A stretch of DNA of 13,237 nt, from the UHGV virus genome UHGV-0118721; one strand, given 5' to 3'. Made by a program: the position numbers and the translations under genes. The DNA comes from a virus. The notes under the pieces are model-generated. The model had not been told where the DNA came from. It did no database searches and saw only the letters and a list, made by a program, of their open reading frames with translations. Positions 4-13,237 of this stretch are shown piece by piece; within the stretch, counting starts at the first letter, position 1; every line of letters begins with the position of its first letter.

Positions 4-44
4 TGTGTACACTTTTGTGTACCCAAAAACAAAAATGTGTACCC
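4..44 (+). repeat. Three direct repeats of TGTGTAC(C)C immediately upstream of int (4-12, 16-24, 36-44)
   Basis: TGTGTACAC, TGTGTACCC and TGTGTACCC at 12- and 20-nt offsets, at the very edge of the window, upstream of the likely int start. Confidence 0.5.
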
Positions 45-49
45 ATTCA

Positions 50-1243
50 ATGATCACCGACACAAAGCTCAGGAAGGCGCTCGGCAAGAAAAGAGATGAT
101 ATCGAGATTATTTCTGATTCGCACGGGCTCAACGCCAGAATCAGCCAGGCCGGAAAAATATCATTTTTCTATCGGTATCGCTGGGCCGGTAAAGCGGTAA
201 AACTCAATGTTGGTGATTATCCTGCAATGAGTATCACCCAGGCAAGAGAGCGTCGCCAACAATTCAGAAACTGGTTAACTGAGGGACTGGATCCGCGAGA
301 GCAGGTGAAGCTGGATAAGCAGACCCGACAGGAAGCGATGTCCGTTGCCGAAGCGTTCAATTACTGGATTGAAAGGCACTGTATCGCTAACGGGCTAGTT
401 AAAGTCGATTACTATCGCCAGGTGTTTGAGAAACATATCGCCGAACCGATGAAGAATGTCAAAGTCGATAACACAGCGAAAATGCACTGGATCAACGTCT
501 TCGATTCTATAGAAAGCAGGGTGATGGCTCATTACATGCTTTCGCTGTGCAAACGGGCGTTTAGGTTCTGCGTTAACAGAAGTGTGATCGCCTCAAACCC
601 ACTCGAGGGATTACTGCCATCTGATGTCGGGCAAAAGCCTAAAAAGAGAACTCGCAGGATGGACGATGACGATCTGCGCAAAATCTATCAGTGGTTGAAA
701 AGCCATATGTCGATAGAGTCCGTTTTCCTGGTGAAATTTATTATGCTTACCGGATGCCGTACGGCTGAGATTCGACTTAGTGAGAGATCATGGTTTCGAT
801 TGGATGATAATGAGTGGGTCGTGCCTGCGGGCAGTTATAAAACTCGGGTACATATTAGAAGGGGACTCTCAGACGCCGCCGTTAACCTGGTCAGAAATCA
901 CCTCAAGAAAATAAACACCAATCACCTGGTGACTTCACAACGTAAAATTGATGGCGGGATCAAAGATTCGCCCGTTCATTCACCTGTGGCATCCAATTAC
1001 GCCCGTTCTATTTGGAATGGAACAGGTATGGCAGAGTGGTCGCTTCATGATATGAGGCGGACGATAGCCACAAATCTCTCTGAGTTAGGTTGCCCGCCGC
1101 ACGTAATTGAAAAGCTGCTCGGGCATCAGATGGTGGGGGTTATGGCGCATTACAACCTTCATGACTATATCGATGATCAGAAACACTGGCTCCGCGTTTG
1201 GCAGAGCCATCTTGAAGAGATCATCGGAGAGCCCTTCAGTTAA
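50..1243 (+). CDS. int: Phage integrase, tyrosine recombinase (P4-like N-terminus [13 protein letters not shown])
   Basis: ORF track 5..1243 begins at GTG; first plausible start is ATG at 50 ([10 protein letters not shown]...). The C-terminus carries the tyrosine-recombinase residue pattern: [11 protein letters not shown] (Arg), HDMRRT (H-x-x-R), [12 protein letters not shown] (Tyr). Neither the ATG at 35 nor the one at 50 has a clear SD, so the start is uncertain by about 15 nt. Confidence 0.85.
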
Positions 1244-1759: not shown

Positions 1760-2878
1760 TCAGGCCACGTATTCCGGTTTCATATCCGCCAGGGTGATGC
1801 TGAATTGATCGTGCAGTTCATCGCCTAAGTGACGCTTTGAAGATGCAAGCATGCGCTCGGCTTCAGCGAACCGTTCGGCTGCATGCGGCTCGTCGGGCTG
1901 GGGCAGGGATTTAATAGCCTCCTCAACCTTGTTGCGTGCATCCACTAGGTAATAACGCTTTACGGCTTTGTTTTTCAGCTCGGTGAATAGTGCGGATCCC
2001 AGCGTAGCTTTCGCCGTTTCAATGTCGGCACGCAGCGATTTGGCGCTATCCACGTCCTGAGCAGATTCGATGCGTTCGCGGAAATCATCGGCAAGAGAGT
2101 CGACATTTACCGACGATTCCTGTGCGCTTTGCGTGGTTGTGACGGTGTCACCTGAGATATCAGCCAGGCTAACGCGTTGCGGCGTTGGGTTGATCTCTTT
2201 TTCTGTGCGCTGTTCAATCTCATCAGGGGTGTACACACCAAGAACAACTGCAGGGCAATATAGGCGCGCCCAGTATTTGAGTGCCAGATAAGCGATCTGC
2301 TGTTTCGGGTTTGATACCCAAAGTGGAGAATTACGTGTGATTACGCTGGAGAGGAAAACAGGCTCTCCCCAGGTGATATCACTTTCACCGCGAATAACGG
2401 CACCTACCCGTACCGACAGTCCTTGTTCATCAGCACTTTCCCAACCGCGTACCATTTCTTTCTTGTCGTACGTCCCGCCACCTTTCGCAGGCTTTTTAAC
2501 GGTTATCTCGCGGCTGCTGGCACATTTCGACCAGTCGCCCTCGTACTCATAGTGAAAGCGGCCAACGATGGCGTTTGAGCTGGAGATCACCGCATTAACC
2601 AGTTGCGCTTCGTATCCCAGGACACCGTTAACCAGGTGCGTCTTTTGCGCCACGGCGTAAGGGTTCATACCCCACTGCATCGCCTGCATGATGATGGCCA
2701 TGCAGTCTGCCGGATTGCCGCGGAGGTGCTCAGGCACCGTTACGGCTGCCTGTGCCATCAACCCGGCGACAGACTGAAGCTGGGTTAAAGCCTGCACGTT
2801 GAAAATGGCATTGCTGGCTGAGATCGTGTTTGGAGTCTGCTGTTCAGCGGTTACGATATTCGTGTTTTCCATCATCAT
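1760..2878 (-). CDS. recT: RecT/Redbeta-family ssDNA annealing protein (probable), with an acidic C-terminal extension
   Basis: 372 aa ORF immediately downstream of the RecE-like gene. Segments CMAIIMQAMQWGMNPYAVAQKTHLVNGVLGYEAQLV and WVSNPKQQIAYLALKYWARLYCPAVV resemble the conserved core and C-terminal helix pattern of RecT. Three tandem ATGs at 2878/2875/2872 follow SD GGGGA; true start is probably 2872 or 2875. Confidence 0.65.
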   Translation of the reverse strand: MMMENTNIVTAEQQTPNTISASNAIFNVQALTQLQSVAGLMAQAAVTVPEHLRGNPADCMAIIMQAMQWGMNPYAVAQKTHLVNGVLGYEAQLVNAVISSSNAIVGRFHYEYEGDWSKCASSREITVKKPAKGGGTYDKKEMVRGWESADEQGLSVRVGAVIRGESDITWGEPVFLSSVITRNSPLWVSNPKQQIAYLALKYWARLYCPAVVLGVYTPDEIEQRTEKEINPTPQRVSLADISGDTVTTTQSAQESSVNVDSLADDFRERIESAQDVDSAKSLRADIETAKATLGSALFTELKNKAVKRYYLVDARNKVEEAIKSLPQPDEPHAAERFAEAERMLASSKRHLGDELHDQFSITLADMKPEYVA

Positions 2879-2883
2879 TCCCC

Positions 2884-5800
2884 TTATGCCTGAGTACGCA
2901 GCGCTTCAAGGCGGCGCAGGTCGAAGTCGTTCAGTTCGTCGGTGTAGTCAGCAGTGATTGGCGCTGGCCATTCACCTGTGTCGAATCCGGTTGCGATATT
3001 GCGCATCGCTTTGCGGTACTCGAGCATACCCAGCTCCAGTAGTTCAGCGGATGCCTCGATGATGGCGATCCAGTGGTAGTTCTCGTCTTTGTTGACGAAA
3101 ATCCAGAAGAACTGATCCAGCGCTGCGGTTTCGCAGTACATAGCCGCGCTCAGGTGATAATCACGTTCAATAATTTCCCGGTGTAGCCTGGCGCGCAGGC
3201 TTTCCTGCTTAACATTCCACATGCTGATGGTTTTCAGGTCTGCACCTATACGCACGCCATCCAGGTCGATCTCAAGGTCAGGGCGCACACGAACTTCCAA
3301 GCCCGTCTCCTCGTCAAAACCAAAGTAGCTCACCTCAACGGCTCGGCTAGGGTGGGTCAGCAGCATGCCGGCGGTCGGGTGTGCCAGAAGCGCTTTTTGA
3401 ATATTCAGCGCGGTGCTCAGCTGCTGGCGGGTGACCAGCACTTTTCCTTCCGGGTTATCGCGCCAGGCATCCAGCAGTTCGTCGGCAAATACGGCATCTG
3501 GTTTGACTGCCTTCACGGCCTGGATCATGTCTGCTTTGGTACCGGACACTTTCAGTGGTGCCGGTTTCTGTGCTTCCTGAGCCACAAGGTCAGGGTTGAT
3601 GATTGCCAACTGCTCCAGCAGCGCGTCACGGCTGCCGCTGGTTTTAACCGGCGGCGGCAGGGTGGCGTTGTACTCTTTAATGCATGCCTTCATTGCCGTC
3701 GCCGTCTGCTTCTGGTCACCATCAATACGCTGGAAGTCAGCTGGCAGCGCCATATAGTTCTGTGCCGTTTCTTCCAGGTTAGCGCCAAGCGGAACCTGCG
3801 GCGGCAGGGTGGCGTTGTACTCTTCCAGTAACACCTTGATGTCGTCGGCAGACAGCAGCGCCGGCAGGCTGGCATTGTGCTCATCGATAAAGGCGCGCAG
3901 GGTCGCGGCCGTTGTGAATGCGCCTTCAGGGATCACCGGTTCAACGCTGAATTCTGCGTCCAGTAGTTCAGGCTGCAACGCCAGCGCATGCACCAAGTTG
4001 CCCATGTCCAGCACCGCTGAGCGCTCTTTGACGATGGTTTTCTCTACGTGGCGCGCATTGAAGTACATCAGCGAAACGCGCGCATCTTTCACCTGGGTTG
4101 AGCTGATGCCGTTGGCGGCGTGGTAAACCTCGTTTGGCAGCCCTTCATAGCGGCCTGGCTCGAAATAAGCGGGATAAACAACAGCTGGTTCGTCAGATTG
4201 CGCTTCTGGCTCGGTTTGTGCTGCAACTGGTTCGGTTTGGCTTACAGAATCGCTATTTTTGGCGACAGAATCCGTATTCTGGTCTACATCGTCCTTCTGG
4301 CTGGTATCTGACTCTTCACCAGACTCCAGACTGCTTTCGCCTGGCTGTACTTCATCACCAGCTTGTTTTTCATCACTGACAGTTTCTTGAACCTGCACAT
4401 TGCTGGTGGTCTCCGTAGCCTTTTTCGTGCCATGAGTTGCTGAGTTCTGCAGCAAAGCCGTAACGTCGAATATTCCGTTGCCGACATTTTTAACCAGTTC
4501 TTGTTCGACTTTCTGCGGTTGTGCTGCCGCTTCCTCTGCGCGGCGGCGTGCTCCTTCTTCACGCACGCGTTGCAGGTTCTCTTCGTGAGTGCAGAAGGAT
4601 TTGCGCGGAGACTCCTTACCTTCAGGTTGGGGAATTTCCTGTGCTGCGGGTTCAGCCTCATGCAACGGCAATAACTCGACCGCGGAATTGAACGCGGCTG
4701 TCATGGTCTGGTTAACAAATTCCAGGTGAGCGACAGGAGTTAAATGAATATTTTCCGGTGCGATACGTACCAGGTTAAAAATAGCCGTGCGGTTAACACC
4801 CAGAACGCCTGGCTGATTGCGCAGGATGTTGCTCCATGATTTCCATGGTTCTTCTTTTTTGGTCACGATTTCTTTAGCGCGACGAAGAATGCTGCCCGGG
4901 ATCTCGAAGTGGTTGAAGTCCATAGGCAGAAGGGCACACGCAATCTCTAAATCGAGAGTGTCCAGTGTGTGGTGTGCGTCAGGTCCACGGTCAGTGACGT
5001 AACCGCCGTCGGCATTAGTGCCGGAATCAGTACGCTGCACACTACTGATGCGATTACCGGCGGCCCATTCGCGAACGAGGATACCGCGGTCGATGTGATC
5101 TGTAGCGAACCACAATTTCAAAAACTGGATTAAGGTTGCGAGTTCAGGGATTTTTCCATCGACAGGGAAGACTTTCTTAACGGCATTCACGACTTTATGA
5201 ATATCGTGCTCAATGGCTTTTTTGAATGCTTCCACATTCTCAGCTGCCAGCAGCAGGTTCTGGACGTACGCGTCATCGGTGTCCATCTCAAGGCGGACAA
5301 TCTCATTTTTCTGCCCTGCGTCGATGTGATAGAGATATTCACCATCACCGATGAACTGAGCCAGTACGCGCTGGCGGAATGGCAGGGTGGCAACAACGAT
5401 CAGGTTCGGTTGCTGTGTCTGCTGGGATTGCTCTTCGGTATCGACTTCACCATCAACGACGCCACCTTCTGCCCGGCCGTTCTCGTCGGTCTGGATACCG
5501 TCCTCAACAGTGAGATCTTGACCCGTTGTAACGTCAGCAGCGTTGCTGGTTTCAGTTTTGAGCAACTGCAACTTACCACTGCGCCAGTCTTCTACCAGTT
5601 GATTGCGGTCACCGGCATCGGTGTTCACCCAGTCAGACATGAATGCAGCGATCAATCTTGGTTCGTGCTCTTCGTCTGGTGTGAAAATGTCCTTAACCGC
5701 CCGAATCATTTTCCACTCAGCATTCAGGCTGAGTTTGGCGGTCGCGGGCACATCGTTCCTTGCCACAAGCAGGCTATGGAGATATGTATTGCCTTCATCC

Positions 5801-6273
5801 AGTGACATTTCGCTGGCAGCCAACTGCTGCTCTTTAGTGACGTGGGTTTGGTATTTATCGTTCATCAGATGGACGGCAAAGCGGACCGCTGGAGTACGGT
5901 TTTCAACCGGGACAATTTCGGACGCAGTCGCATCTTCAACGATTACGGTCGGAGTAGGTGTGTAGGGGGCGTCAACGGAACCAGTAGACACACCAGCGGC
6001 TTTTGGCAGCCAGGTGCGCCCATCGTCCTGAAGCTCGTAGCGATCACACCAGGTAAAATCAACTTCACCTTCTTTCGGCAGGCCGTCGACAACTGGGAAA
6101 TCAGTGCGAATCGGTTTGGCGTAGTCCTTACCCCGACCTGTTTCGATACCTGCATCTTCCAGCGCAACATCCAGCATCAGATTGGCGCGAGCCTCGGTTT
6201 TAGCAGTGAACCAGACCACTGCATCTTGCTTTCCGGATTTCTGAGTGGCTTTAACCACATTAAAGAATTCCAT
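2884..6273 (-). CDS. recE: RecE-like exodeoxyribonuclease VIII (large, 1129 aa, C-terminal PD-(D/E)xK nuclease domain)
   Basis: Long ORF with SD GAGGA 7 nt upstream of the ATG at 6273. Near the C-terminus, RPDLEIDLDGVRIGADLKT has the D...D-x-K spacing of PD-(D/E)xK nucleases as in RecE. Gene order (large exonuclease then annealing protein, same strand) matches the Rac recE-recT operon. Contains an acidic Ser/Asp/Glu-rich linker and an internal 147-nt periodic repeat. Confidence 0.75.
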   Translation of the reverse strand: MEFFNVVKATQKSGKQDAVVWFTAKTEARANLMLDVALEDAGIETGRGKDYAKPIRTDFPVVDGLPKEGEVDFTWCDRYELQDDGRTWLPKAAGVSTGSVDAPYTPTPTVIVEDATASEIVPVENRTPAVRFAVHLMNDKYQTHVTKEQQLAASEMSLDEGNTYLHSLLVARNDVPATAKLSLNAEWKMIRAVKDIFTPDEEHEPRLIAAFMSDWVNTDAGDRNQLVEDWRSGKLQLLKTETSNAADVTTGQDLTVEDGIQTDENGRAEGGVVDGEVDTEEQSQQTQQPNLIVVATLPFRQRVLAQFIGDGEYLYHIDAGQKNEIVRLEMDTDDAYVQNLLLAAENVEAFKKAIEHDIHKVVNAVKKVFPVDGKIPELATLIQFLKLWFATDHIDRGILVREWAAGNRISSVQRTDSGTNADGGYVTDRGPDAHHTLDTLDLEIACALLPMDFNHFEIPGSILRRAKEIVTKKEEPWKSWSNILRNQPGVLGVNRTAIFNLVRIAPENIHLTPVAHLEFVNQTMTAAFNSAVELLPLHEAEPAAQEIPQPEGKESPRKSFCTHEENLQRVREEGARRRAEEAAAQPQKVEQELVKNVGNGIFDVTALLQNSATHGTKKATETTSNVQVQETVSDEKQAGDEVQPGESSLESGEESDTSQKDDVDQNTDSVAKNSDSVSQTEPVAAQTEPEAQSDEPAVVYPAYFEPGRYEGLPNEVYHAANGISSTQVKDARVSLMYFNARHVEKTIVKERSAVLDMGNLVHALALQPELLDAEFSVEPVIPEGAFTTAATLRAFIDEHNASLPALLSADDIKVLLEEYNATLPPQVPLGANLEETAQNYMALPADFQRIDGDQKQTATAMKACIKEYNATLPPPVKTSGSRDALLEQLAIINPDLVAQEAQKPAPLKVSGTKADMIQAVKAVKPDAVFADELLDAWRDNPEGKVLVTRQQLSTALNIQKALLAHPTAGMLLTHPSRAVEVSYFGFDEETGLEVRVRPDLEIDLDGVRIGADLKTISMWNVKQESLRARLHREIIERDYHLSAAMYCETAALDQFFWIFVNKDENYHWIAIIEASAELLELGMLEYRKAMRNIATGFDTGEWPAPITADYTDELNDFDLRRLEALRTQA
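3651..3824 (-). repeat. Intragenic direct repeat inside recE-like gene: 27-nt identical copies at 3651-3677 and 3798-3824 (147 nt = 49 codon period), degenerate third copy near 3860-3882
   Basis: gcggcggcagggtggcgttgtactctt occurs twice on the + strand; in the coding frame it gives the repeated peptide EYNATLPP (also IDEHNASLP). Confidence 0.8.
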
Positions 6274-6792: not shown

Positions 6793-6971
6793 GATGTTCT
6801 CCACTATTGCTGAGTGAACTTCGCTGGTGGTGCCGTGACGCTGATCTTCACAGTTGAGCGTTTTAACTCTGCAGTTCACCACCGCGAAACCCACTCTTAT
6901 GTGCCTGTCTTTTATCCACTTCAGGCTCGGTGGTATGCTGGTAGTTCTCACACAGCCAGCAAGGAATAACT

Positions 6972-7265
6972 ATGAAATCAGTAACTAAGCCATGTCCTAT
7001 TTGTGGTGAAGATTCTTTGTCTTTTAACCAGACAAATCAGTTGGTTAACATCAAAGTAAAACCACCAACTATTCGTGAAGTTCCATCAGTGGTTTACGTT
7101 TGCGATACTCACGGATGGTTTTCACTTTCAGAACAGATAAACAGACTCGTCACATCTAATGACGACCCTGCGGCTAAGCAAAAACTGGCTGTTATTGTCA
7201 AAGAGCGATATGTGCCGGAACAGGATCAGCCGTTAGCCCTGAAACCTATTGAGTCGCTCGCATAA
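6972..7265 (+). CDS. Small zinc-finger protein (97 aa; CPICG...C-x2-H, resembles a YgiT/MqsA-type N-terminal zinc ribbon)
   Basis: SD-like AAGGA upstream of the ATG at 6972. Ligand pattern C8, C11, C44, H47. Oriented opposite to the surrounding leftward genes, as sieB is in Rac, but it has no transmembrane segment so it is not SieB-like. Confidence 0.5.
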   Translation: MKSVTKPCPICGEDSLSFNQTNQLVNIKVKPPTIREVPSVVYVCDTHGWFSLSEQINRLVTSNDDPAAKQKLAVIVKERYVPEQDQPLALKPIESLA

Positions 7266-7515
7266 GGTCTTTTCGGCTCTCGCTGCGATATCCCAGGCGG
7301 TACATTTTCACGTAGGCTTTGCCGCGAGGAATGCCGCCTGTTTTGTTGAATCTCTGCTGGGCGCGGCGATGGTGTTTTGCTTCAGGGCTGTTTGAACCTT
7401 TCCCGCCATTCGATCGAGAACTTGGGAGTTGCATTGGCTTTTGGCGTGAATAGAATTTACGTGCCCAGCATGCTCCAAAGCCGATCATGCCTGTTTTCTT
7501 CGTATTACCTTTCAT
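7246..7515 (-). CDS. Hypothetical basic, low-complexity protein (89 aa); candidate N-like antiterminator by position only
   Basis: First leftward ORF downstream of the predicted pL-like promoter. Rich in Lys/Arg/Gly/Ser. SD GAGGGG upstream of the ATG at 7515. Its 3' end overlaps the convergent + gene by 20 nt, which lowers confidence. Confidence 0.3.
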   Translation of the reverse strand: MKGNTKKTGMIGFGACWARKFYSRQKPMQLPSSRSNGGKGSNSPEAKHHRRAQQRFNKTGGIPRGKAYVKMYRLGYRSESRKDLMRATQ

Positions 7516-7594
7516 CTCAATCCCCTCGTTTGCCCTTGTCGCCAGGCCAGCGGAACGTTTGAACTTGATGCGCTTAGTGTTTCTCGATGGGGTG

Positions 7595-7623
7595 ATGATA
7601 GCTAAGGCGATTTATTTTATCAA
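7595..7623 (-). promoter_or_regulatory. Candidate leftward early promoter (pL-like): -35 TTGATA (7618-7623), 17-nt spacer, -10 TATCAT (7595-7600), with overlapping operator-like half-sites
   Basis: Read on the minus strand: TTGATA-17-TATCAT. Sequences resembling the ATCGC-N4-GCGAT operator motif of the OR region occur at 7621-7636 (AATCGC ttaa ACGATA) and 7597-7612 (GATAGC taag GCGATT). Confidence 0.35.
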
Positions 7624-7960
7624 TCGCTTAAACGATAATATTGTGATTTTGCCGATTATTATTTGATTTATAAAGTGATTTATTTTTGTATGAGATGCGT
7701 GATATGCTCAAAAAAACACCAGGCGGGGATATTGATATGGGTTTAGGAATGGATATGTCACGTGATGAGCTGCTGGAAGATCGCGCTGCTTTCATGGCTG
7801 GCGAGATTGGCGGTGCAGTTGTCGAGTAGATAATCAACGGTGTGGTGATAAGTCGAGATGCGATAGTAGATAGCTTGGAGACTAAGCGTCGCGCGGTTGG
7901 AAATGTGATTCACAAAGGAGTGTTGTGGGATGTCACTGCTATGGTGAGAAAAGGAATATG

Positions 7961-7983
7961 AAAACCGGCATAATGCCGGTTTA
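7961..7983 (-). terminator. Intrinsic terminator after the membrane-protein gene (analogous in position to lambda tIMM)
   Basis: Minus-strand RNA: stop UAA, then stem ACCGGCA / loop UUA / UGCCGGU (7964-7980), then UUUUCAUAUUCCUUUU. The palindrome also reads as a hairpin on the + strand. Confidence 0.6.
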
Positions 7984-8610
7984 CTTTGATTTTTCCTGTT
8001 GGTGAAGTACTCGTGGAGTAGTTGGTTCTTGAGGTAATTGGATGATAACAGGTTGCTGCGCTACTGGTTGAACTACGGGCGGATCACTCTTCAAGGCAGA
8101 AACAAGACTAGGTAATGCAACGACAACCGCAATGATAACGCCAAAAATAGCAAGCCTAGTGGAAATACCTGATTGAATACCGCCAATCGCAGTGTTTATT
8201 CCTGTAATTTGCCCTTGTATACCTTCGAATTTGCCATTGATGGCTTTTACATCCCCATCAACGCTATCCATTTTCCCTTCAATTTTAGAAGAAATAGAGC
8301 TAATAGATGAATTGAGCGATGCCAGCTGAACGTTCATATTCTCGCGTGACAAAGCCATTTCAGCTCTAATCGAAGATGCAATGGACTCCATCTCCGCCTT
8401 ATTGGCAGCTAGAAGTGCTTGCATTTCTTCACGGCTAACTGATGACATTTCATTTCCCCCATCAGTTTCATTAGCTTCATCTGTTGATTTGATAAAGTTA
8501 GTATACATTTCTTCTTTATCGACGCGTAGTCTGTTTTGAACATTGGGGTACAGGTCATCTTTATCAATGCCAGAACCGCAGTCTGGGACAGCTTTGAGAG
8601 ATGGGCCCAT
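7981..8610 (-). CDS. Membrane-anchored coiled-coil protein (209 aa): N-terminal soluble coiled-coil region, one transmembrane helix, Pro/Gln-rich C-terminal tail; candidate exclusion/abortive-infection effector
   Basis: ATG at 8610 overlaps the upstream gene stop (ATGA); the track's GTG at 8613 is one codon upstream. Heptad-like Ser/Ile-rich region (SLNSSISSISSKIEG...GIQGQITGINTAIGGIQSGIS), hydrophobic helix LAIFGVIIAVVVALPSLVSAL, then tail PPVVQPVAQQPVIIQLPQEPTTP. Low-GC sequence. Confidence 0.75.
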   Translation of the reverse strand: MGPSLKAVPDCGSGIDKDDLYPNVQNRLRVDKEEMYTNFIKSTDEANETDGGNEMSSVSREEMQALLAANKAEMESIASSIRAEMALSRENMNVQLASLNSSISSISSKIEGKMDSVDGDVKAINGKFEGIQGQITGINTAIGGIQSGISTRLAIFGVIIAVVVALPSLVSALKSDPPVVQPVAQQPVIIQLPQEPTTPRVLHQQEKSK

Positions 8611-8972
8611 CACTTCCCATCCTCTCCTTGATCTTCTTTTCTTTTATTAATCAGTGTCCTGGCTTTTTTATAAGAAAAAAGCAGTACATGTGCGCAGTGA
8701 TCACACGTGATTCGAAATAGTGGCATACCGCCAGGATATGTCACAGCACTATCAGTATCAGGTTTGTATTGTGCATAACTAAGTGTTTCGATCACATGAT
8801 GTTTTGGCTGATTTTCTTCTACATCAAGATCAAAGGCACCAACTACAGACCATGACTGGTTCCCGCAGATTTGGCAAGTTATTGGTTTTTTGAATGAATT
8901 TATGAAATCAATGAACTCATCCGCTGTGATAATCTCGGAGTTTGCTTCACTATGAAATAATTCCGATTTCAT
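8610..8972 (-). CDS. Zinc-ribbon protein (120 aa; CxxC at C33/C36 and C90/C93); first gene of a two-gene operon downstream of the repressor
   Basis: Track ORF starts at TTG 8996; the first ATG (8972) has SD AAGGA 8 nt upstream. Motifs ITCQICG and ITCDHCAH. Low-GC sequence, 44 nt after the repressor stop. No family recognised by eye. Confidence 0.7.
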   Translation of the reverse strand: MKSELFHSEANSEIITADEFIDFINSFKKPITCQICGNQSWSVVGAFDLDVEENQPKHHVIETLSYAQYKPDTDSAVTYPGGMPLFRITCDHCAHVLLFSYKKARTLINKRKEDQGEDGK

Positions 8973-9016
8973 AATTATGATCCTTTTCTGGGCCAAAGTA
9001 GATAAAAAGTACAGTT

Positions 9017-9700
9017 TTACAATCGGTTATACTTTATTGATTCATGAATCAATGCCTTACCCATTACGTAGAGTTGATCCTGATTACCTTCGTTAATGTA
9101 CCACTTCTCATAAGCTGAGTTATCAGACAAAACTGCCAACCTATCGCCCTGCATCTGCAAGCGCTTCACATGGAAATGTTGTCCGAAAACGAACGCATAA
9201 ACACCGTCGACCTTGAAGTTTCTTACAGAAATATCGAAAAACAATCTGTCACCAGACTGTATAGTTGGACACATGCTGTCGCCATCGACCGTCATTACTT
9301 TTACGTCTTCCTGAGAACGATTTCCGAAGAGTGAACGAGCGTGTTCGGTTGTGAACTCAATGGCGTGTAGAACCTCAACAAACTCAGAAATCATGAAAGA
9401 ACCTGGCCCCGCGCTAAATGTCAGGTCAAGTACGTCAACTCTGAATATGTTTGAGTCTTTTTTTGTCGCGGTAATGGGAGGCGGTAGCTGGCCATCGTTA
9501 CGCATCGGTCCGGATCCCGTGGAAAGCCATTCAGGGCGAACATTGAGAACAGAAGCTATCTCGACCGTTTTTCTTGAGCTTGATGCACCATTTAGCAGCT
9601 TGTTAACACTTGACTGTGCCATGCCAACTGCCTTAGCTAGCTTGCCCTGTGTATAACCCGCCTCATTCATTGCGCGATCTAATCGCTCAGAAAAACTCAT
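9017..9700 (-). CDS. CI-like prophage repressor: N-terminal XRE-type HTH plus C-terminal S24 (LexA-like) autopeptidase domain
   Basis: Start chosen at ATG 9700 (MSFSERLDRAMNEAGYTQGKLAKAVGMAQSSVNKLL = HTH). The track's upstream extension is read-through of the promoter region. C-terminal VDGDSMCPTIQSGDRLFFD...HFHVKRLQ matches the Ser/Lys dyad context of S24 peptidases. Confidence 0.9.
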   Translation of the reverse strand: MSFSERLDRAMNEAGYTQGKLAKAVGMAQSSVNKLLNGASSSRKTVEIASVLNVRPEWLSTGSGPMRNDGQLPPPITATKKDSNIFRVDVLDLTFSAGPGSFMISEFVEVLHAIEFTTEHARSLFGNRSQEDVKVMTVDGDSMCPTIQSGDRLFFDISVRNFKVDGVYAFVFGQHFHVKRLQMQGDRLAVLSDNSAYEKWYINEGNQDQLYVMGKALIHESIKYNRL

Positions 9701-9729
9701 TAAAGATACCCCCCTAATAACCTTCATAA

Positions 9730-9803
9730 ATATTATCGCCACAGCGATTAATAAGCAAAAAATCGCATAGGCGATTGACATTCGTTAAAGCGATAAACAT
9801 AAT
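9730..9803. promoter_or_regulatory. Divergent immunity switch: repressor promoter (minus; -35 TTGCTT 9753-9758, -10 TAATAT 9730-9735), rightward promoter (plus; -35 TTGACA 9775-9780, -10 CATAAT 9798-9803), and palindromic operators
   Basis: Both promoters have 17-nt spacers. Operator-like palindromes: AATCGC-ATAG-GCGATT (9761-9776, perfect arms, overlapping the rightward -35) and TTATCGC-CACA-GCGATTA (9733-9750, overlapping the repressor promoter spacer/-10). A further GCGAT half-site at 9790-9794 lies in the rightward spacer. Confidence 0.6.
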
Positions 9804-9830
9804 CAACCTAAATTGATAGAAGGAGCGATT

Positions 9831-10061
9831 ATGAAAAACCCTGCTGTAGAAAAAGCGATTGCAATCGCCGGTAGTCAGAAAGAGCTAGCGAAGCGATGTG
9901 GTAAGGCCCAATCCACGGTCTGTGACTGGTTAAATGGGAAAAAACAAATCTCCCCGATCCATGTTCCTGTTTTGGTAAAGGCAAGCGAAGGACAGATTCA
10001 AGCTCATGAATTCCGTCCCGACCTTCCTGAATTGTTTCCGCATCCACATTCAGCCGCCTGA
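9831..10061 (+). CDS. Cro-like / YdaS-family HTH regulator (76 aa)
   Basis: ATG at 9831 with SD AGGAG at 5-nt spacing (the track's TTG at 9813 is unlikely). HTH-like segment SQKELAKRCGKAQSTVCDWLNGKK. Divergent from the repressor across the operator region. Confidence 0.75.
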   Translation: MKNPAVEKAIAIAGSQKELAKRCGKAQSTVCDWLNGKKQISPIHVPVLVKASEGQIQAHEFRPDLPELFPHPHSAA

Positions 10062-10092: not shown

Positions 10093-10632
10093 ATGCAATC
10101 ACTTACGTTTTACCAGGATACAGGAGTACCGCAACAAGCGGTGATAAATCGCGCTCAAACCTATAAGGGGCCGTGTCACGAAGATATTCGAAATGCCGTT
10201 CGTTCATGGGCGGGTGTAGATGGTCAGGATGTCGTTTCTGCTCTGATCGTCGAAGAGTACCGGGCGCAGGGTGGTTATGACATCACTTTCCCTGACGATC
10301 TCTGCCGAAAGCGGCAGAAGCTTTTCCGCTTCCTGGATAACCATTTCAACAGCGAACGGTACCGTGAGAACGTTCGCCAGCTGACTCCGGCAATCCTGGC
10401 GGTCCTGCCGATTGAATACCGCAACCGTCTGCTACCAGAAGACAACGTTATGGCCCGCCTGGCTCGGCTGGAGAAAGAAACCAGCGAAGCGAAGATTGCC
10501 GTCGCAATGGATGCGCCACGCCATCAAAAGCTGAAAGAGTTGAGCGAGGGGATCGTGGAGATGTATCGCGTTGACCCTGGGTTAACCGGTCCACTGATGG
10601 AGATGGTGCAGATGATGCTGGGGGCTATATGA
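10093..10632 (+). CDS. YdaT-like (CII-position) regulatory protein (179 aa)
   Basis: SD AAGGGA upstream of the ATG. Lies immediately after the cro-like gene as ydaT does in Rac. Segments HEDIRNAVRSWAGVDGQDV and QKLFRFLDN resemble YdaT as I recall it; family assignment unverified. Confidence 0.5.
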   Translation: MQSLTFYQDTGVPQQAVINRAQTYKGPCHEDIRNAVRSWAGVDGQDVVSALIVEEYRAQGGYDITFPDDLCRKRQKLFRFLDNHFNSERYRENVRQLTPAILAVLPIEYRNRLLPEDNVMARLARLEKETSEAKIAVAMDAPRHQKLKELSEGIVEMYRVDPGLTGPLMEMVQMMLGAI

Positions 10633-10716
10633 CCGGTTCAAAAATGGCGAAAGCCGCGGTGCGCGAACACCAACGGCTTTCAGGTGCAAAAACAGTGCGT
10701 AATTGCGGAGAACAGT

Positions 10717-11625
10717 ATGTCAAACACCGCTGAAATAATCAATTTCCCAAATAAAACCGAACAACCGGGAGGTCGTATGGCCGACCTGTCGAACGGGTAT
10801 ACCAAGGTCGCTAACGAGATCCAACAGCTTAAGCCTCGCCTGAGACTGTCAGGCCGGGAATGGCAATGTTTTGAGGCGGTGATCTGGCTTACCTACGGCT
10901 GGAACAAGAAACAGGACCGCGTGACAAATACGGTTATTGCCGAGCTTACGGGCCTGAGCGATACGCATGTATCGGACGCGCTTAAGTCTCTCGCAGAACG
11001 CAAAATCATCTTTTCACAGAAGCAGGGCATGATGAAAATCGTCGGTGTAAACACTGACCTTTCAGCATGGATTTTAGACAAACCGGAAACGGGAAGAAAA
11101 TTCCCGAAAACGGGAAAATCCTTCCCGAAATCAGGAATAACCTTCCCGAAAACGGTAGACACCCAATACAAGAACAAGAACAGTATTAAAAGATCTTCGT
11201 CCGAGAATTCTGACGAATCCTCTGACGCACGTCTGAAGAAATTTTTATCAACTCATCCTGAAGCTGCGGTCTACACACCATCCGGTGCGAAGTGGGGCTC
11301 TGCTGAAGACCTCGAGACAGCTAAGTGGATTTCCTCCAGGGTGAAGCTGATTAACCCAACCTGCAAAGCCCCGGACATGACCTCCTGGTCTAACACTGTT
11401 CGCCTGATGCGCCAGATAGACAACCGGTCGCACCAGGACATCTGCGCGCTGTATGACTGGGCTAGCAAACACCACTTCTGGCAGACCAACATCCTGAGTC
11501 CCGAAAGCCTGCGTAAGCAGTGGGACAAGCTGACAATGCAGCGTAACGCCGGAGGTGAGCAGCGCGCTGTCAAGCCAGATCTGGACTTCAACAACACTGA
11601 CTGGGCCTATGGGGTGATCCGATGA
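10717..11625 (+). CDS. O: Replication initiation protein, lambda O-like (302 aa)
   Basis: Start at ATG 10717 (SD GGAG, 7-nt spacing; the track's GTG at 10684 is unlikely). N-terminus MSNTAEIINF...ADLSNGYTKVANE...LTYGWNK closely parallels lambda O (MTNTAKILNF...ADLDDGYARLSN...KTYGWNK). Iteron repeats lie inside the gene as in lambda. Confidence 0.85.
   Translation: MSNTAEIINFPNKTEQPGGRMADLSNGYTKVANEIQQLKPRLRLSGREWQCFEAVIWLTYGWNKKQDRVTNTVIAELTGLSDTHVSDALKSLAERKIIFSQKQGMMKIVGVNTDLSAWILDKPETGRKFPKTGKSFPKSGITFPKTVDTQYKNKNSIKRSSSENSDESSDARLKKFLSTHPEAAVYTPSGAKWGSAEDLETAKWISSRVKLINPTCKAPDMTSWSNTVRLMRQIDNRSHQDICALYDWASKHHFWQTNILSPESLRKQWDKLTMQRNAGGEQRAVKPDLDFNNTDWAYGVIR
11081..11161 (+). repeat. Origin-of-replication iterons within the O-like gene: about four 20-22 bp repeats (consensus TTCCCGAAAACGGGAAAA), followed by an AT-rich stretch (11162-11260)
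   Basis: Copies at 11084-11097 (CCGGAAACGGGAAG), 11102-11119, 11124-11141 and 11144-11161. Each contains an internal inverted repeat (TTCCCG/CGGGAA). They encode the FPK(T/S)G peptide repeat. The downstream segment is AT-rich. Confidence 0.6.
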
Positions 11626-12311
11626 AATCTCTTGCAGAGCAGGTGCGTAACCACGACCGCGAGCAGATGAGCCGCATGGCCCATAACCTGCCAGAGCAGT
11701 ACCAGGAGTGCGCGCCGGTCGAGCAGGTGGCGCAGGTATTCAACAAGCTGTTCAACGAGCTGCGCGCCGCGTTCCCGGCCAGCATGGCGAACTTCCGCAC
11801 CCAGGAAGACCTGAACGAATTCCGCCGTCAGTGGCTGCTGGCGTTTCAGGAGAACGGGATCCACACCATGGCTCAGGTCGATGCCGGCATGCGCATTGCC
11901 CGCCGCCAGGAGCGCCCATTCCTGCCGTCGCCGGGCCAGTTTGTCGCCTGGTGCAAGCAGAGCGGCGGCGCGCTGGGCGTCAACGTTGACCAGGTGATCG
12001 CCGAATACTGGGACTGGCGTAACCGCTCGTTCGAATTCATCTCCAGCGAGCAATTTCCATGGTCGCAGCCGGTCATGTACCACATTTGCGTAGAATTGCG
12101 CCACCGCAGCACCGAGCGCCAGTTAACGCATGGTGAACTGGCACGCGAGGCAGGCGATCTGCTGGACATGTGGGAAAGGCGCGTCACCGAGGGTAAGCCA
12201 GTGCCGCCGGTACGCCGGGCTATTGCCGCACCAGCTGCCGAGCAAGGGCCGACGCCGATCCAGCTGCTGCTGGCCAAGTACAACCGCAACAAGTCGAACG
12301 GGATGGTGTGA
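11622..12311 (+). CDS. P: Replication protein P-like (lambda P family, DnaB helicase loader)
   Basis: Translation MKSLAEQVRNHDREQMSRMAHNLPEQYQ...RPFLPSPGQFVAWCKQ parallels lambda P (MKNIAAQMVNFDREQMRRIANNMPEQYD...RPFLPSPGQFVAWCRE). Start overlaps the O stop (ATGA). Confidence 0.85.
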   Translation: MKSLAEQVRNHDREQMSRMAHNLPEQYQECAPVEQVAQVFNKLFNELRAAFPASMANFRTQEDLNEFRRQWLLAFQENGIHTMAQVDAGMRIARRQERPFLPSPGQFVAWCKQSGGALGVNVDQVIAEYWDWRNRSFEFISSEQFPWSQPVMYHICVELRHRSTERQLTHGELAREAGDLLDMWERRVTEGKPVPPVRRAIAAPAAEQGPTPIQLLLAKYNRNKSNGMV

Positions 12312-12312
12312 C

Positions 12313-12657
12313 ATGAACATAACAATCCGTGAGCAGGTGCTGGCAGCCCTGCGCAACAACCCAGGGTTGAACAACGCCAAACTGGCAGGGCTTATCGGCA
12401 TGGACACCAAAAAGATATCCGGAACGGTGAGCACGCTGCTGGCAGACGGCCTGATCCGCTGCGAAGGAAAATACGGCCAGCGCCTTTACAGCCTGACCAG
12501 CTACGGAATGCGCTTCGCCCCTGACACGATACCTGGCATGAAGCAGGGTAAGTCGAAGTTAATTCAGCGGACGGACACAAACGTGATCTGCCAGGAGTTC
12601 CGCAACAGCGCGGCGATGAAGCGAGTATTGATGGTTTGGGGGAGGGCAGGGGTATGA
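12313..12657 (+). CDS. ren: Ren-like protein (114 aa)
   Basis: Starts 1 nt after the P stop. C-terminus ICQEFRNSAAMKRVLMVWG parallels lambda Ren (FKECRQSAAMKRVLAVYG); the mid-region alignment is also plausible. The track ORF 12130..12657 includes an out-of-context N-terminal extension. Confidence 0.6.
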   Translation: MNITIREQVLAALRNNPGLNNAKLAGLIGMDTKKISGTVSTLLADGLIRCEGKYGQRLYSLTSYGMRFAPDTIPGMKQGKSKLIQRTDTNVICQEFRNSAAMKRVLMVWGRAGV

Positions 12658-13187
12658 GCAATAAATACGAAGATCTGATTAAAAGCGCCAGGATGAATGC
12701 CGATTGTGGTGAGCACATGTCACCGGCAGAAGTTACGACTCTCCTTAACGTGGTTGAAGCCAAGTGCGCGGCGCTGGCTGCGGAGTTGAGTGCAATTGAA
12801 GCAATTCACAATGACGCGGTGTTCATCACCGATGCTCATTACGATCAATGCCATCCAGAAGTACAGAAGATTATCGGAGCTCTGGCTGTGCTGCAGATTC
12901 CTGCGTACCAGGCTTTCCTGGCTGAAGTGCGGGCGCAAGCCCACAAGGAAGGCGCTCACTTTGTTGCCAACCGAATGCTGGCTGCATGGGAGGCTGGGTT
13001 TATCGAAGACACAGCGAAGAACGCTGCGGACATCGCACGAATGATACTGACCTCCACAGAGTTTATGGATGATGCGCCGGAAGGCGATTTCGATCGCTCG
13101 TTCGCTGATGGTGTACTCGAAGACATCGCCGCCCAGATTCGCAAGGGGGAGCGCAATGGACCAACATCGAGGAAGAAAAATACCTGA
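12654..13187 (+). CDS. Hypothetical protein (177 aa), nin-region position
   Basis: ATG at 12654 overlaps the ren-like stop (ATGA); purine-rich GGGAGGGCAGGGG upstream. No family recognised by eye. Confidence 0.55.
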   Translation: MSNKYEDLIKSARMNADCGEHMSPAEVTTLLNVVEAKCAALAAELSAIEAIHNDAVFITDAHYDQCHPEVQKIIGALAVLQIPAYQAFLAEVRAQAHKEGAHFVANRMLAAWEAGFIEDTAKNAADIARMILTSTEFMDDAPEGDFDRSFADGVLEDIAAQIRKGERNGPTSRKKNT

Positions 13188-13237
13188 GCCGTCACGACCT
13201 GACGGGACGGACGGTACTGGTGGATTGTGTCACGCTA

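Follow-up and report, generated by a model that had tools for sequence, protein, structure and literature searches.

In phage lambda, the genes rexA and rexB lie beside the repressor gene cI in the order OL, tIMM, rexB, rexA, cI, OR (OL and OR, leftward and rightward operators; tIMM, terminator); RexB is a polytopic membrane protein and RexA is 279 amino acids (aa) long. Published accounts report that RexA binds DNA and that RexA and RexB tip the lambda switch in favour of lysis (bioRxiv 10.1101/2021.04.19.439022; PMC11077077). The cI–N interval is a mosaic hotspot with high transcription in lysogens, and it houses bstA as well as rexAB (PMC8585504). BstA, of BTP1 and other prophages, is encoded directly 3′ of the prophage repressor gene, is highly expressed in lysogens and acts in abortive-infection defence; it is described as a single large protein localising to sites of phage DNA replication (PMC8585504). 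Here we analyse a pair of genes occupying the corresponding interval of UHGV virus genome UHGV-0118721, a stretch of 13,237 nucleotides that is called the window throughout. The pair encodes a predicted zinc-ribbon protein (gene 1) and a predicted membrane-anchored coiled-coil protein (gene 2), and an earlier sequence-only reading had proposed it as an unrecognised operon acting in defence or superinfection exclusion. We find that gene 2 belongs to a repressor-linked family in which a conserved membrane module is combined with unrelated partner proteins and matching N-terminal heads.

Results

The two open reading frames (ORFs) of the cassette lie on the minus strand where the sequence-only reading had placed them. 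The two CxxC pairs it listed for gene 1 (C33/C36 and C90/C93) are present, and gene 2 has the anatomy it described, with a coiled coil, one transmembrane (TM) helix and a Pro/Gln-rich tail:

8610–8972, minus strand: gene 1, predicted cytoplasmic zinc-ribbon protein of 120 aa, CxxC at residues 33–36 and 90–93
7981–8610, minus strand: gene 2, 209 aa
8452–8610, minus strand: gene 2 head, residues 1–53; variable, of a type that co-varies with the upstream partner type, with an hLxhV motif (SLKAV)
8161–8451, minus strand: gene 2 residues 54–150; conserved helical region SREExxAxLxANKAE..., then eight Ile-rich a/d heptads
8092–8160, minus strand: predicted gene 2 TM helix, residues 151–173, RLAIFGVIIAVVVALPSLVSAL, continuous with the coiled coil
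7981–8091, minus strand: gene 2 tail, residues 174–209, and stop codon; Pro/Gln-rich, family motif QP(I/V)IIQ(V/L)PQ

The junction is not the ATGA overlap that had been read at 8610: the genes meet as TGATG, with a one-base overlap at 8610, or as GTGA if the GTG at 8613 is used, and ATGA occurs in relatives rather than in the window. In RefSeq, the identical two coding sequences are present in five complete genomes of E. coli, where their products (WP_016247090 and WP_016247089) are labelled hypothetical. Ratios of nonsynonymous to synonymous substitution rates (dN/dS) were computed against an IMG/VR relative (L013) with proteins about 80–85% identical and a dS of about 0.8–1.0. Gene 1 gave 0.08 and gene 2 gave 0.145 as a whole, with 0.05 for the coiled-coil/TM core, 0.25 for the head and 0.42 for the tail. 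Strong purifying selection therefore acts on both. Their low GC content and hypothetical annotation might suggest that the ORFs are chance or degenerating sequence within an AT-rich spacer, but the conservation data refute this idea and leave it a negligible chance of being right: beyond the dN/dS values, the cysteines of gene 1 are invariant, insertions and deletions in gene 2 keep the heptad register, the AlphaFold model of gene 1 is confident, and the pair is kept across eleven genera.

The sole strongly hydrophobic window of gene 2 spans residues 153–171 (mean Kyte–Doolittle 2.66), and the eight a/d heptads directly precede it, with 13 of their 16 core positions hydrophobic and mostly Ile. 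Residues 54–150, heptads included, are predicted to form a parallel coiled coil. Coiled-coil rules associate Ile at a and d with parallel trimers, and because gene 2 has Ile at both positions, its coiled coil is probably trimeric. Length differences in the repeat region among homologues are multiples of 7 residues, as would be expected if the coiled-coil register matters. The coiled-coil helix continues without a break into the TM segment, and oligomerisation would therefore gather the TM helices into a bundle. Residues L153, F156, V164 and A165 of the TM region are invariant in the family alignment; in the 36-residue tail (seven Pro, seven Gln, five Val), P187 is invariant and Q191 and P193 are nearly so. 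Since a signal peptide is absent and the 150 N-terminal residues are hydrophilic, gene 2 is probably tail-anchored, with its N terminus in the cytoplasm and its 36-residue tail in the periplasm.

None of the residues C33, C36, C90 and C93 of gene 1 varies among 14 homologues, the most distant of which is 23% identical. Its AlphaFold model (predicted local distance difference test score 84) has a helix at 17–25, a beta sheet over 41–100 and a basic C-terminal helix at 101–117, and strands flank both CxxC knuckles, placing these conserved knuckles on beta hairpins as in a zinc ribbon. Sequence and model together point to a zinc ribbon that would bind metal. The confident model yielded no fold relative, and at the sequence level the protein matches phrog_4293, of unknown function, over its full length (2.5e-33, residues 3–118).

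Gene 1 represents one of five mutually non-homologous partner types found with gene 2 relatives: the zinc ribbon, proteins of 144–150 aa (phrog_5893), and proteins of 84–92 aa, 98–101 aa and 149 aa. In the partner/head table over the analysed loci, every partner type has its own gene 2 head type, and across all of them the gene junctions are as a rule tight or overlapping. A conserved membrane module is thus joined to a variable head, the translationally coupled partner co-varies with that head, and a form that lacks the head stands alone. The simplest explanation would be that the partner binds the head and either controls the membrane module or passes information to it. Gene 1 is thus proposed to be a head-specific partner that may act as a sensor, a regulator or an antitoxin-like protein. 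A homology of gene 1 to HK24405, the phrog_5893-type partner in phage HK244, was also considered and is ruled out (BLASTP E 0.047).

Otherwise differing heads share, near the N terminus, a short motif of a basic residue followed by L-x-(V/A)-V, often then G-G/S. Examples across different partner types are SLKAV, RRLKVVGGS, SSLRVVAGT, PKLRVVSG and PRLQAV.

The cassette sits within a lambda-like immunity region:

9017–9700, minus strand: CI-like repressor gene (HTH_3 and Peptidase_S24; PF00717, 6.7e-17; PF01381, 9.9e-8; phrog_4, 6e-58)
9701–9812, no strand assigned: divergent control region (OR equivalent)
9735–9748 and 9762–9775: OR-side operators ATCGCCACAGCGAT and ATCGCATAGGCGAT, from the pattern search
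9775–9803, plus strand: PR-like promoter TTGACA-17-CATAAT, an 11/12 match in the promoter scan, leading into the cro-like gene
8973–9016, minus strand: spacer between repressor and gene 1, 44 nucleotides, with an AAGGA Shine–Dalgarno sequence 8 nucleotides 5′ of the gene 1 ATG
7962–7982, no strand assigned: hairpin terminator (tIMM equivalent), AAACCGGCA-TAA-TGCCGGTTT, overlapping the gene 2 stop codon
7595–7640, minus strand: PL/OL equivalent, with promoter-like TTGATA-17-TATCAT at 7623–7595
7598–7611 and 7623–7636: OL-side operators, overlapping the PL-like promoter

The elements thus follow the lambda order, as OL/PL, terminator, gene 2, gene 1, repressor and OR. Searching the window for the operator pattern ATCGC-N4-GCGAT with one mismatch allowed gave 5 matches against 0.6 expected by chance, and 4 of the 5 form two pairs. 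The repressor, both cassette genes and the terminator all lie between these two operator pairs (7598/7623 and 9735/9762), and this upholds the proposal that the slot corresponds in position to lambda cI-rexA-rexB-tIMM; the repeats I2, I5 and D6 also connect the 9701–9812 region with 7598–7642. RefSeq labels the repressor a LexA family regulator and starts it at 9700, although its reading frame is open to 9781. The ATG at 9700 is the most likely start because an ORF from 9781 would overlap both OR operators; it is preceded by a GGGGGG Shine–Dalgarno sequence, and with this start the repressor message would carry a leader, unlike lambda cI.

The hairpin terminator expected 3′ of the gene pair was found at 7962–7982. 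Its stem is 9 base pairs (bp) with five G-C pairs and was scored by the scan on the plus strand only; on the minus strand the tail is TTTTCATATT if the stem is read as 6 bp, and the hairpin is usable as a terminator for either strand. The terminator scan from the repressor stop codon to this hairpin found no terminator-like site between them, so both genes are probably co-transcribed with the repressor in lysogens, from a PRM-like promoter (PRM, promoter for repressor maintenance) that would read leftward out of 9701–9812. GC content is 0.38–0.43 over 8000–9200, against 0.51–0.59 in recE and 0.52–0.64 on the O/P side, where P reaches 0.64, in keeping with the AT-richness pointed out in the sequence-only reading; the repressor is AT-rich too (0.41–0.47).

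A small plus-strand gene at 7686–7961 converges on the cassette and shares its hairpin. It is interrupted by an in-frame stop at 7830–7832, and RefSeq labels it a pseudogene. Intact genes for acidic helical proteins of 58–68 aa lie in the terminator–OL interval of L056 and L057, where the sequence is recognisably similar, and also of L060, L061 and L062. Such a gene could provide self-immunity against the cassette or act as its regulatory partner.

The gene 2 family comprises 46 clusters at 90% identity, all from Enterobacterales and none with a functional name. We compared 46 loci, drawn from the window, genomes of Klebsiella, Kosakonia, Yersinia and Salmonella, 39 IMG/VR contigs and phage records. 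Of these, 45 have the family-2 gene 3′ of a repressor gene and co-directional with it, and no more than one or two small ORFs separate the two. The repressor-then-cassette arrangement is also present in two further genome loci. A scan of genome contigs returned only two loci. Recurrence beside unrelated repressors, a check that the sequence-only reading had named, holds: the repressors fall into 17 clusters (80% identity) across 43 loci, the HK244-type cassette adjoins 11 of the 17, and one repressor cluster occurs with two cassette types. In phages HK244 and HK542, the gene 2 homologue sits in the place of rexAB between lambda cI and the annotated Timm, in the order lambda cI, 144-aa ORF, gene 2 homologue, Timm, OL. 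DNA homology between the window and L012–L015 begins within the C-terminal half of the repressor gene and stops exactly at the terminator; therefore cassette and terminator move as a block that includes this part of the repressor.

The lone exception to the repressor linkage is L049, which encodes a head-less family-2 protein of 146 aa (3992–4432) and no small partner. The gene is found (context 2484–5297) among tail genes, 3′ of an ORF6N antirepressor gene and two genes for ribbon-helix-helix-like small regulators, and a RelB/RelE-like pair comes after it. The region resembles a secondary immunity region of the P22 immI type in which accessory genes have gathered as well. In 12 IMG/VR loci, the PADLOC defence candidate PDC-S43 (DUF3024, 113 aa, E 7e-42) is inserted between the repressor and an HK244-type cassette, as a second moron stacked in the same hotspot:

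L016–L025, L027 and L032: loci with PDC-S43 (for example, L016 at 2996–3337)

The supposition that neither protein is RexA, RexB, SieB or a member of another named family was confirmed in Pfam, NCBIfam, PHROGs and PADLOC. Neither protein, nor any other partner type, passes the curated cut-offs of Pfam, NCBIfam or PADLOC, and a search for RexA/RexB homology at permissive E-values in Pfam, NCBIfam, PHROGs and PADLOC gave no match. Families of the SieB, SieA and HK97 gp15 types are absent among the Pfam and PHROG matches, and the Pfam/NCBIfam matches of either protein include no known toxin or antitoxin domain. In PADLOC-DB 2.0, the four other partner types are without a match. Gene 2 matches phrog_5820, of unknown function (1.3e-70, residues 7–207). 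Sequence searches of the PDB gave chance or coiled-coil matches only; those of gene 2 are the trimeric viral coiled coils of HA2 and reovirus sigma-1, with non-significant E-values. A sub-threshold NCBIfam match links gene 2 to MakE (E 1.8e-4; 20.6 bits against a cut-off of 360), and a 57-residue alignment (E 0.2) sets its heptad-to-TM junction against the membrane-inserting head of SmhB. We treat the MakE/SmhB resemblance as a weak lead, and by the curated profile cut-off gene 2 is not a ClyA-type alpha-pore-forming toxin. XhlA and CCDC90-like families are not listed for gene 2 in Pfam; its relatives reach 18–26 bits against cut-offs of 33.5–34.7. Some database names present gene 2 as a relative of baculovirus PEP or P10, which we reject as sub-threshold matches of coiled-coil composition. 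A megablast search of the phage collection gave no match.

In the literature we found no mention of HK24404/05, of either WP accession or of the PHROG ids; HK542 is mentioned solely as a test phage. Nor did we find an account of the gene 2 family, its strict repressor linkage or its swappable partner/head modules, or of recurrent pairing between a zinc ribbon and a membrane coiled coil. The label "unrecognised" nevertheless holds only in part: GenBank has listed homologues, as hypothetical ORFs, from the 2007 records of the HK244/HK542 immunity regions onward, and both proteins are members of PHROGs.

More distant zinc-ribbon homologues (23–37% identity) are encoded directly 3′ of the repressor in L054, L055, L056, L057, L060 and L061, each followed by an overlapping gene for a single-pass membrane protein with coiled-coil segments. 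A strong terminator comes after the membrane gene in the four loci read that far (L054, L056, L058 and L060). The membrane partner belongs to family 2 proper in L055, L060 and L061 and is a 96-aa miniature in L054, while in L056 and L058 the TM helix is central and the coiled coil C-terminal. At L059 (4001–4670), the partner of a marginal zinc-ribbon homologue (107 aa, E 9e-4) is a coiled-coil protein of 119 aa whose TM helix is C-terminal; the surroundings are chromosomal and non-phage, with ileS, lspA, DUF3035, the pair and then M16 peptidases. Zinc-ribbon and coiled-coil/TM pairs may therefore exist outside prophages too.

By gene content, the window comes from a Rac-like lambdoid prophage of E. 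coli, with lambda-type O (PF04492) and P (PF06992) genes in addition to the following:

5–1243, plus strand: integrase
1760–2878, minus strand: RecT
2884–6273, minus strand: RecE
9813–10061, plus strand: YdaS-type cro gene
10093–10632, plus strand: YdaT-type cII equivalent

The prophage of E. coli 2018-10-1CC (L001) is otherwise 98–99.7% identical to the window but lacks 6898–7528 (631 bp). This segment encodes a 97-aa ORF (6972–7265, plus strand) with an N-terminal CxxC and a weak Lar-like match (E 0.03), and a basic 89-aa ORF (7246–7515, minus strand) just 3′ of the PL-like promoter, the position of an N-type antiterminator; the latter has no Pfam match. The match to L001 ends at 10689, and over the remaining 10689–13237 the window has the lambda-type O/P module where L001 has a DnaT-like protein and an ATPase. 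This difference is a replication-module swap at a mosaic boundary.

Discussion

Our preferred reading, held tentatively and with a little less than even confidence, is that the cassette is a two-protein membrane module, expressed in the lysogen, that protects it against other phages in a Rex-like manner, with the partner sensing and the membrane protein executing. Three observations argue for phage exclusion: the slot is a known home of rexAB and bstA with high transcription in lysogens, PDC-S43 sits in the same interval in 12 loci, and the modules turn over rapidly beside many immunity specificities. The defence or exclusion role suggested in the sequence-only reading is likewise one that we infer, as is the division into sensor and effector suggested there, which fits the co-variation of partner and head. 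The cassette would be a mobile accessory unit within the prophage immunity region, transcribed together with the repressor from the maintenance promoter, and transcription would halt at the 7962–7982 hairpin, short of PL. Gene 2 would be the conserved working part, a tail-anchored inner-membrane protein whose Ile zipper leads into the TM helix and a short periplasmic tail. Gene 1, cytoplasmic and made in coupled amounts, would dock on the variable gene 2 head. The partner might hold the membrane module or sense on its behalf, so that infection would release or re-arrange it; the module might then harm the membrane barrier, as in abortive infection, or block a step at the membrane.

Several points weigh against this. 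The exact cassette occurs in 5 of 5426 complete E. coli genomes, each 100% identical over 7900–9100, and the gene 2 family, limited in size and taxonomic range, contrasts with defence systems that have been successful on a broad scale. PADLOC-DB 2.0 returned no matches for gene 1 and only PbeC, at E 0.019, for gene 2. A trimer with a single TM helix per chain makes no obvious pore, and the similarity to MakE and SmhB is far below curated cut-offs and could be compositional. A position next to the repressor also fits switch-modulating or addiction functions. The anti-phage role is a candidate function deduced from sequence, and a phenotype may already have been published for a homologue. A more specific version of the proposal, which we regard as rather doubtful, is an undescribed plug-in abortive-infection system in which the tail-anchored Ile-zipper protein, whose heptad-to-TM junction bears a faint likeness to the membrane-inserting head of ClyA-type alpha-pore-forming toxins, would breach the inner membrane from inside, armed by exchangeable head-plus-partner sensors. 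Each of the five or more partner types would then recognise a different phage cue, and the small convergent gene between terminator and OL might act as the prophage’s own antidote.

One alternative to abortive infection is superinfection exclusion at the envelope. Gene 2, as a constitutive membrane protein, would use its conserved TM helix and periplasmic QPIIIQVPQ tail to hinder DNA entry by incoming phages, much as P22 SieA, HK97 gp15 and T4 Imm do; its binding target might, for example, be a host factor of the inner membrane or periplasm, or proteins that the phage ejects. Lysogen expression is expected from the operon position. Conservation in gene 2 is highest in the coiled coil, in the TM helix and in the tail motif on the presumed periplasmic side, and the head-less L049 member retains nothing else. 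The idea nonetheless strikes us as unlikely: it leaves a coupled cytoplasmic partner and a co-varying head, in five versions, unexplained; the tail beyond the short motif evolves fastest of all (dN/dS 0.42); and there is no homology to a known superinfection-exclusion protein. Another alternative is a toxin–antitoxin-like (TA-like) module, with gene 2 as membrane toxin and the upstream protein as antitoxin. It could serve for addiction, stabilising the prophage, or for tuning the switch, where it would aid the commitment to lytic growth after induction or set its timing; such a role has been proposed for RexA/RexB in the lambda switch. A small partner gene placed first, with overlapping stop and start codons, is the type II TA gene order, and the combination of a single conserved “toxin” with a variety of unrelated upstream partners recalls how type II TA systems mix and match their components; a RelB/RelE-like pair also adjoins the head-less homologue in L049. 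That homologue, however, would be an unguarded toxin, Pfam shows no antitoxin signature, DNA-binding or protease-labile, in any of the partner types, and the operon is probably driven by the repressor promoter rather than by an autoregulated one of its own. In either role, addiction or switch tuning, we consider a TA-like module quite unlikely.

Least probable of these, and in our view very improbable, is lysogenic conversion unrelated to phages, in which gene 2 would be a membrane-tethered scaffold, like ElaB or YqjD, that alters host physiology, for example stress tolerance or the tethering of ribosomes or proteins. The tail-anchored coiled-coil architecture would suit such a role, as would the weak sub-threshold match of relatives to the CCDC90-like tail-anchored family and the non-phage chromosomal context of the L059 pair. 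But L059 is a marginal homologue (E 9e-4), and near-exclusive linkage to prophage repressor genes together with rapid turnover is a pattern typical of conflict genes, not of additions to housekeeping functions.

Sister ORFs in the HK244 and HK542 records, annotated as hypothetical, and the interval as a mosaic hotspot were already known, and defence cargo beside a repressor is a general idea that specialists would expect. What the family offers in addition is a natural experiment, in which one conserved membrane module has been combined with at least five unrelated partners and their matching heads. If the cassette is a defence system, it would make a tractable model for swapping sensors onto a fixed membrane effector; if its role lies in the switch or in prophage stability, it would account for a part that recurs, without annotation to date, in the immunity regions of Escherichia, Klebsiella, Salmonella, Yersinia and their relatives. 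An isolated phage, HK542 (complete genome JQ086373), carries a sister version of the cassette.

The likeness to lambda rexAB is one of arrangement. Both gene pairs lie inside the OL–OR interval on the repressor strand, 3′ of the repressor gene and with a terminator before OL/PL, and in both the gene for a soluble protein comes first and that for a membrane protein second. Sequence and fold show no relationship to RexA or RexB, however: in contrast to RexB, gene 2 is predicted to be a single-pass, tail-anchored coiled coil, and in contrast to RexA, gene 1 is a predicted zinc ribbon of 120 aa, in a partner position that is swappable among five unrelated types. HK24405/HK24404 of HK244 and gp35/36 of HK542 are hypothetical ORFs of wild lambda-immunity phages (GenBank EF120457, JQ086373). 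Gene 2 is 70% identical to HK24404 over residues 54–199 (146 aa), and slot, coupling and terminator are shared, but residues 1–53 of gene 2 are unrelated, as is the upstream partner over its whole length; HK24405 is a 144-aa beta-rich protein (phrog_5893) and, unlike gene 1, has no zinc ribbon. BstA has no homology to gene 1 or gene 2, and the paper on BstA reports no membrane module (PMC8585504). XhlA (PF10779), CCDC90-like/DUF1640 (PF07798), MakE and SmhB resemble gene 2 in having a helical coiled coil that runs straight into a hydrophobic membrane segment, but the matches are far under curated thresholds, and gene 2 was compared with them by sequence alone. At curated thresholds, then, the cassette is no member of a PADLOC system or of a superinfection-exclusion, XhlA, CCDC90-like or ClyA-type family, and as judged by sequence comparison it sits like rexAB without belonging to that family. 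It would add a third, unrelated solution to the repressor–PL slot that rexAB and bstA occupy.

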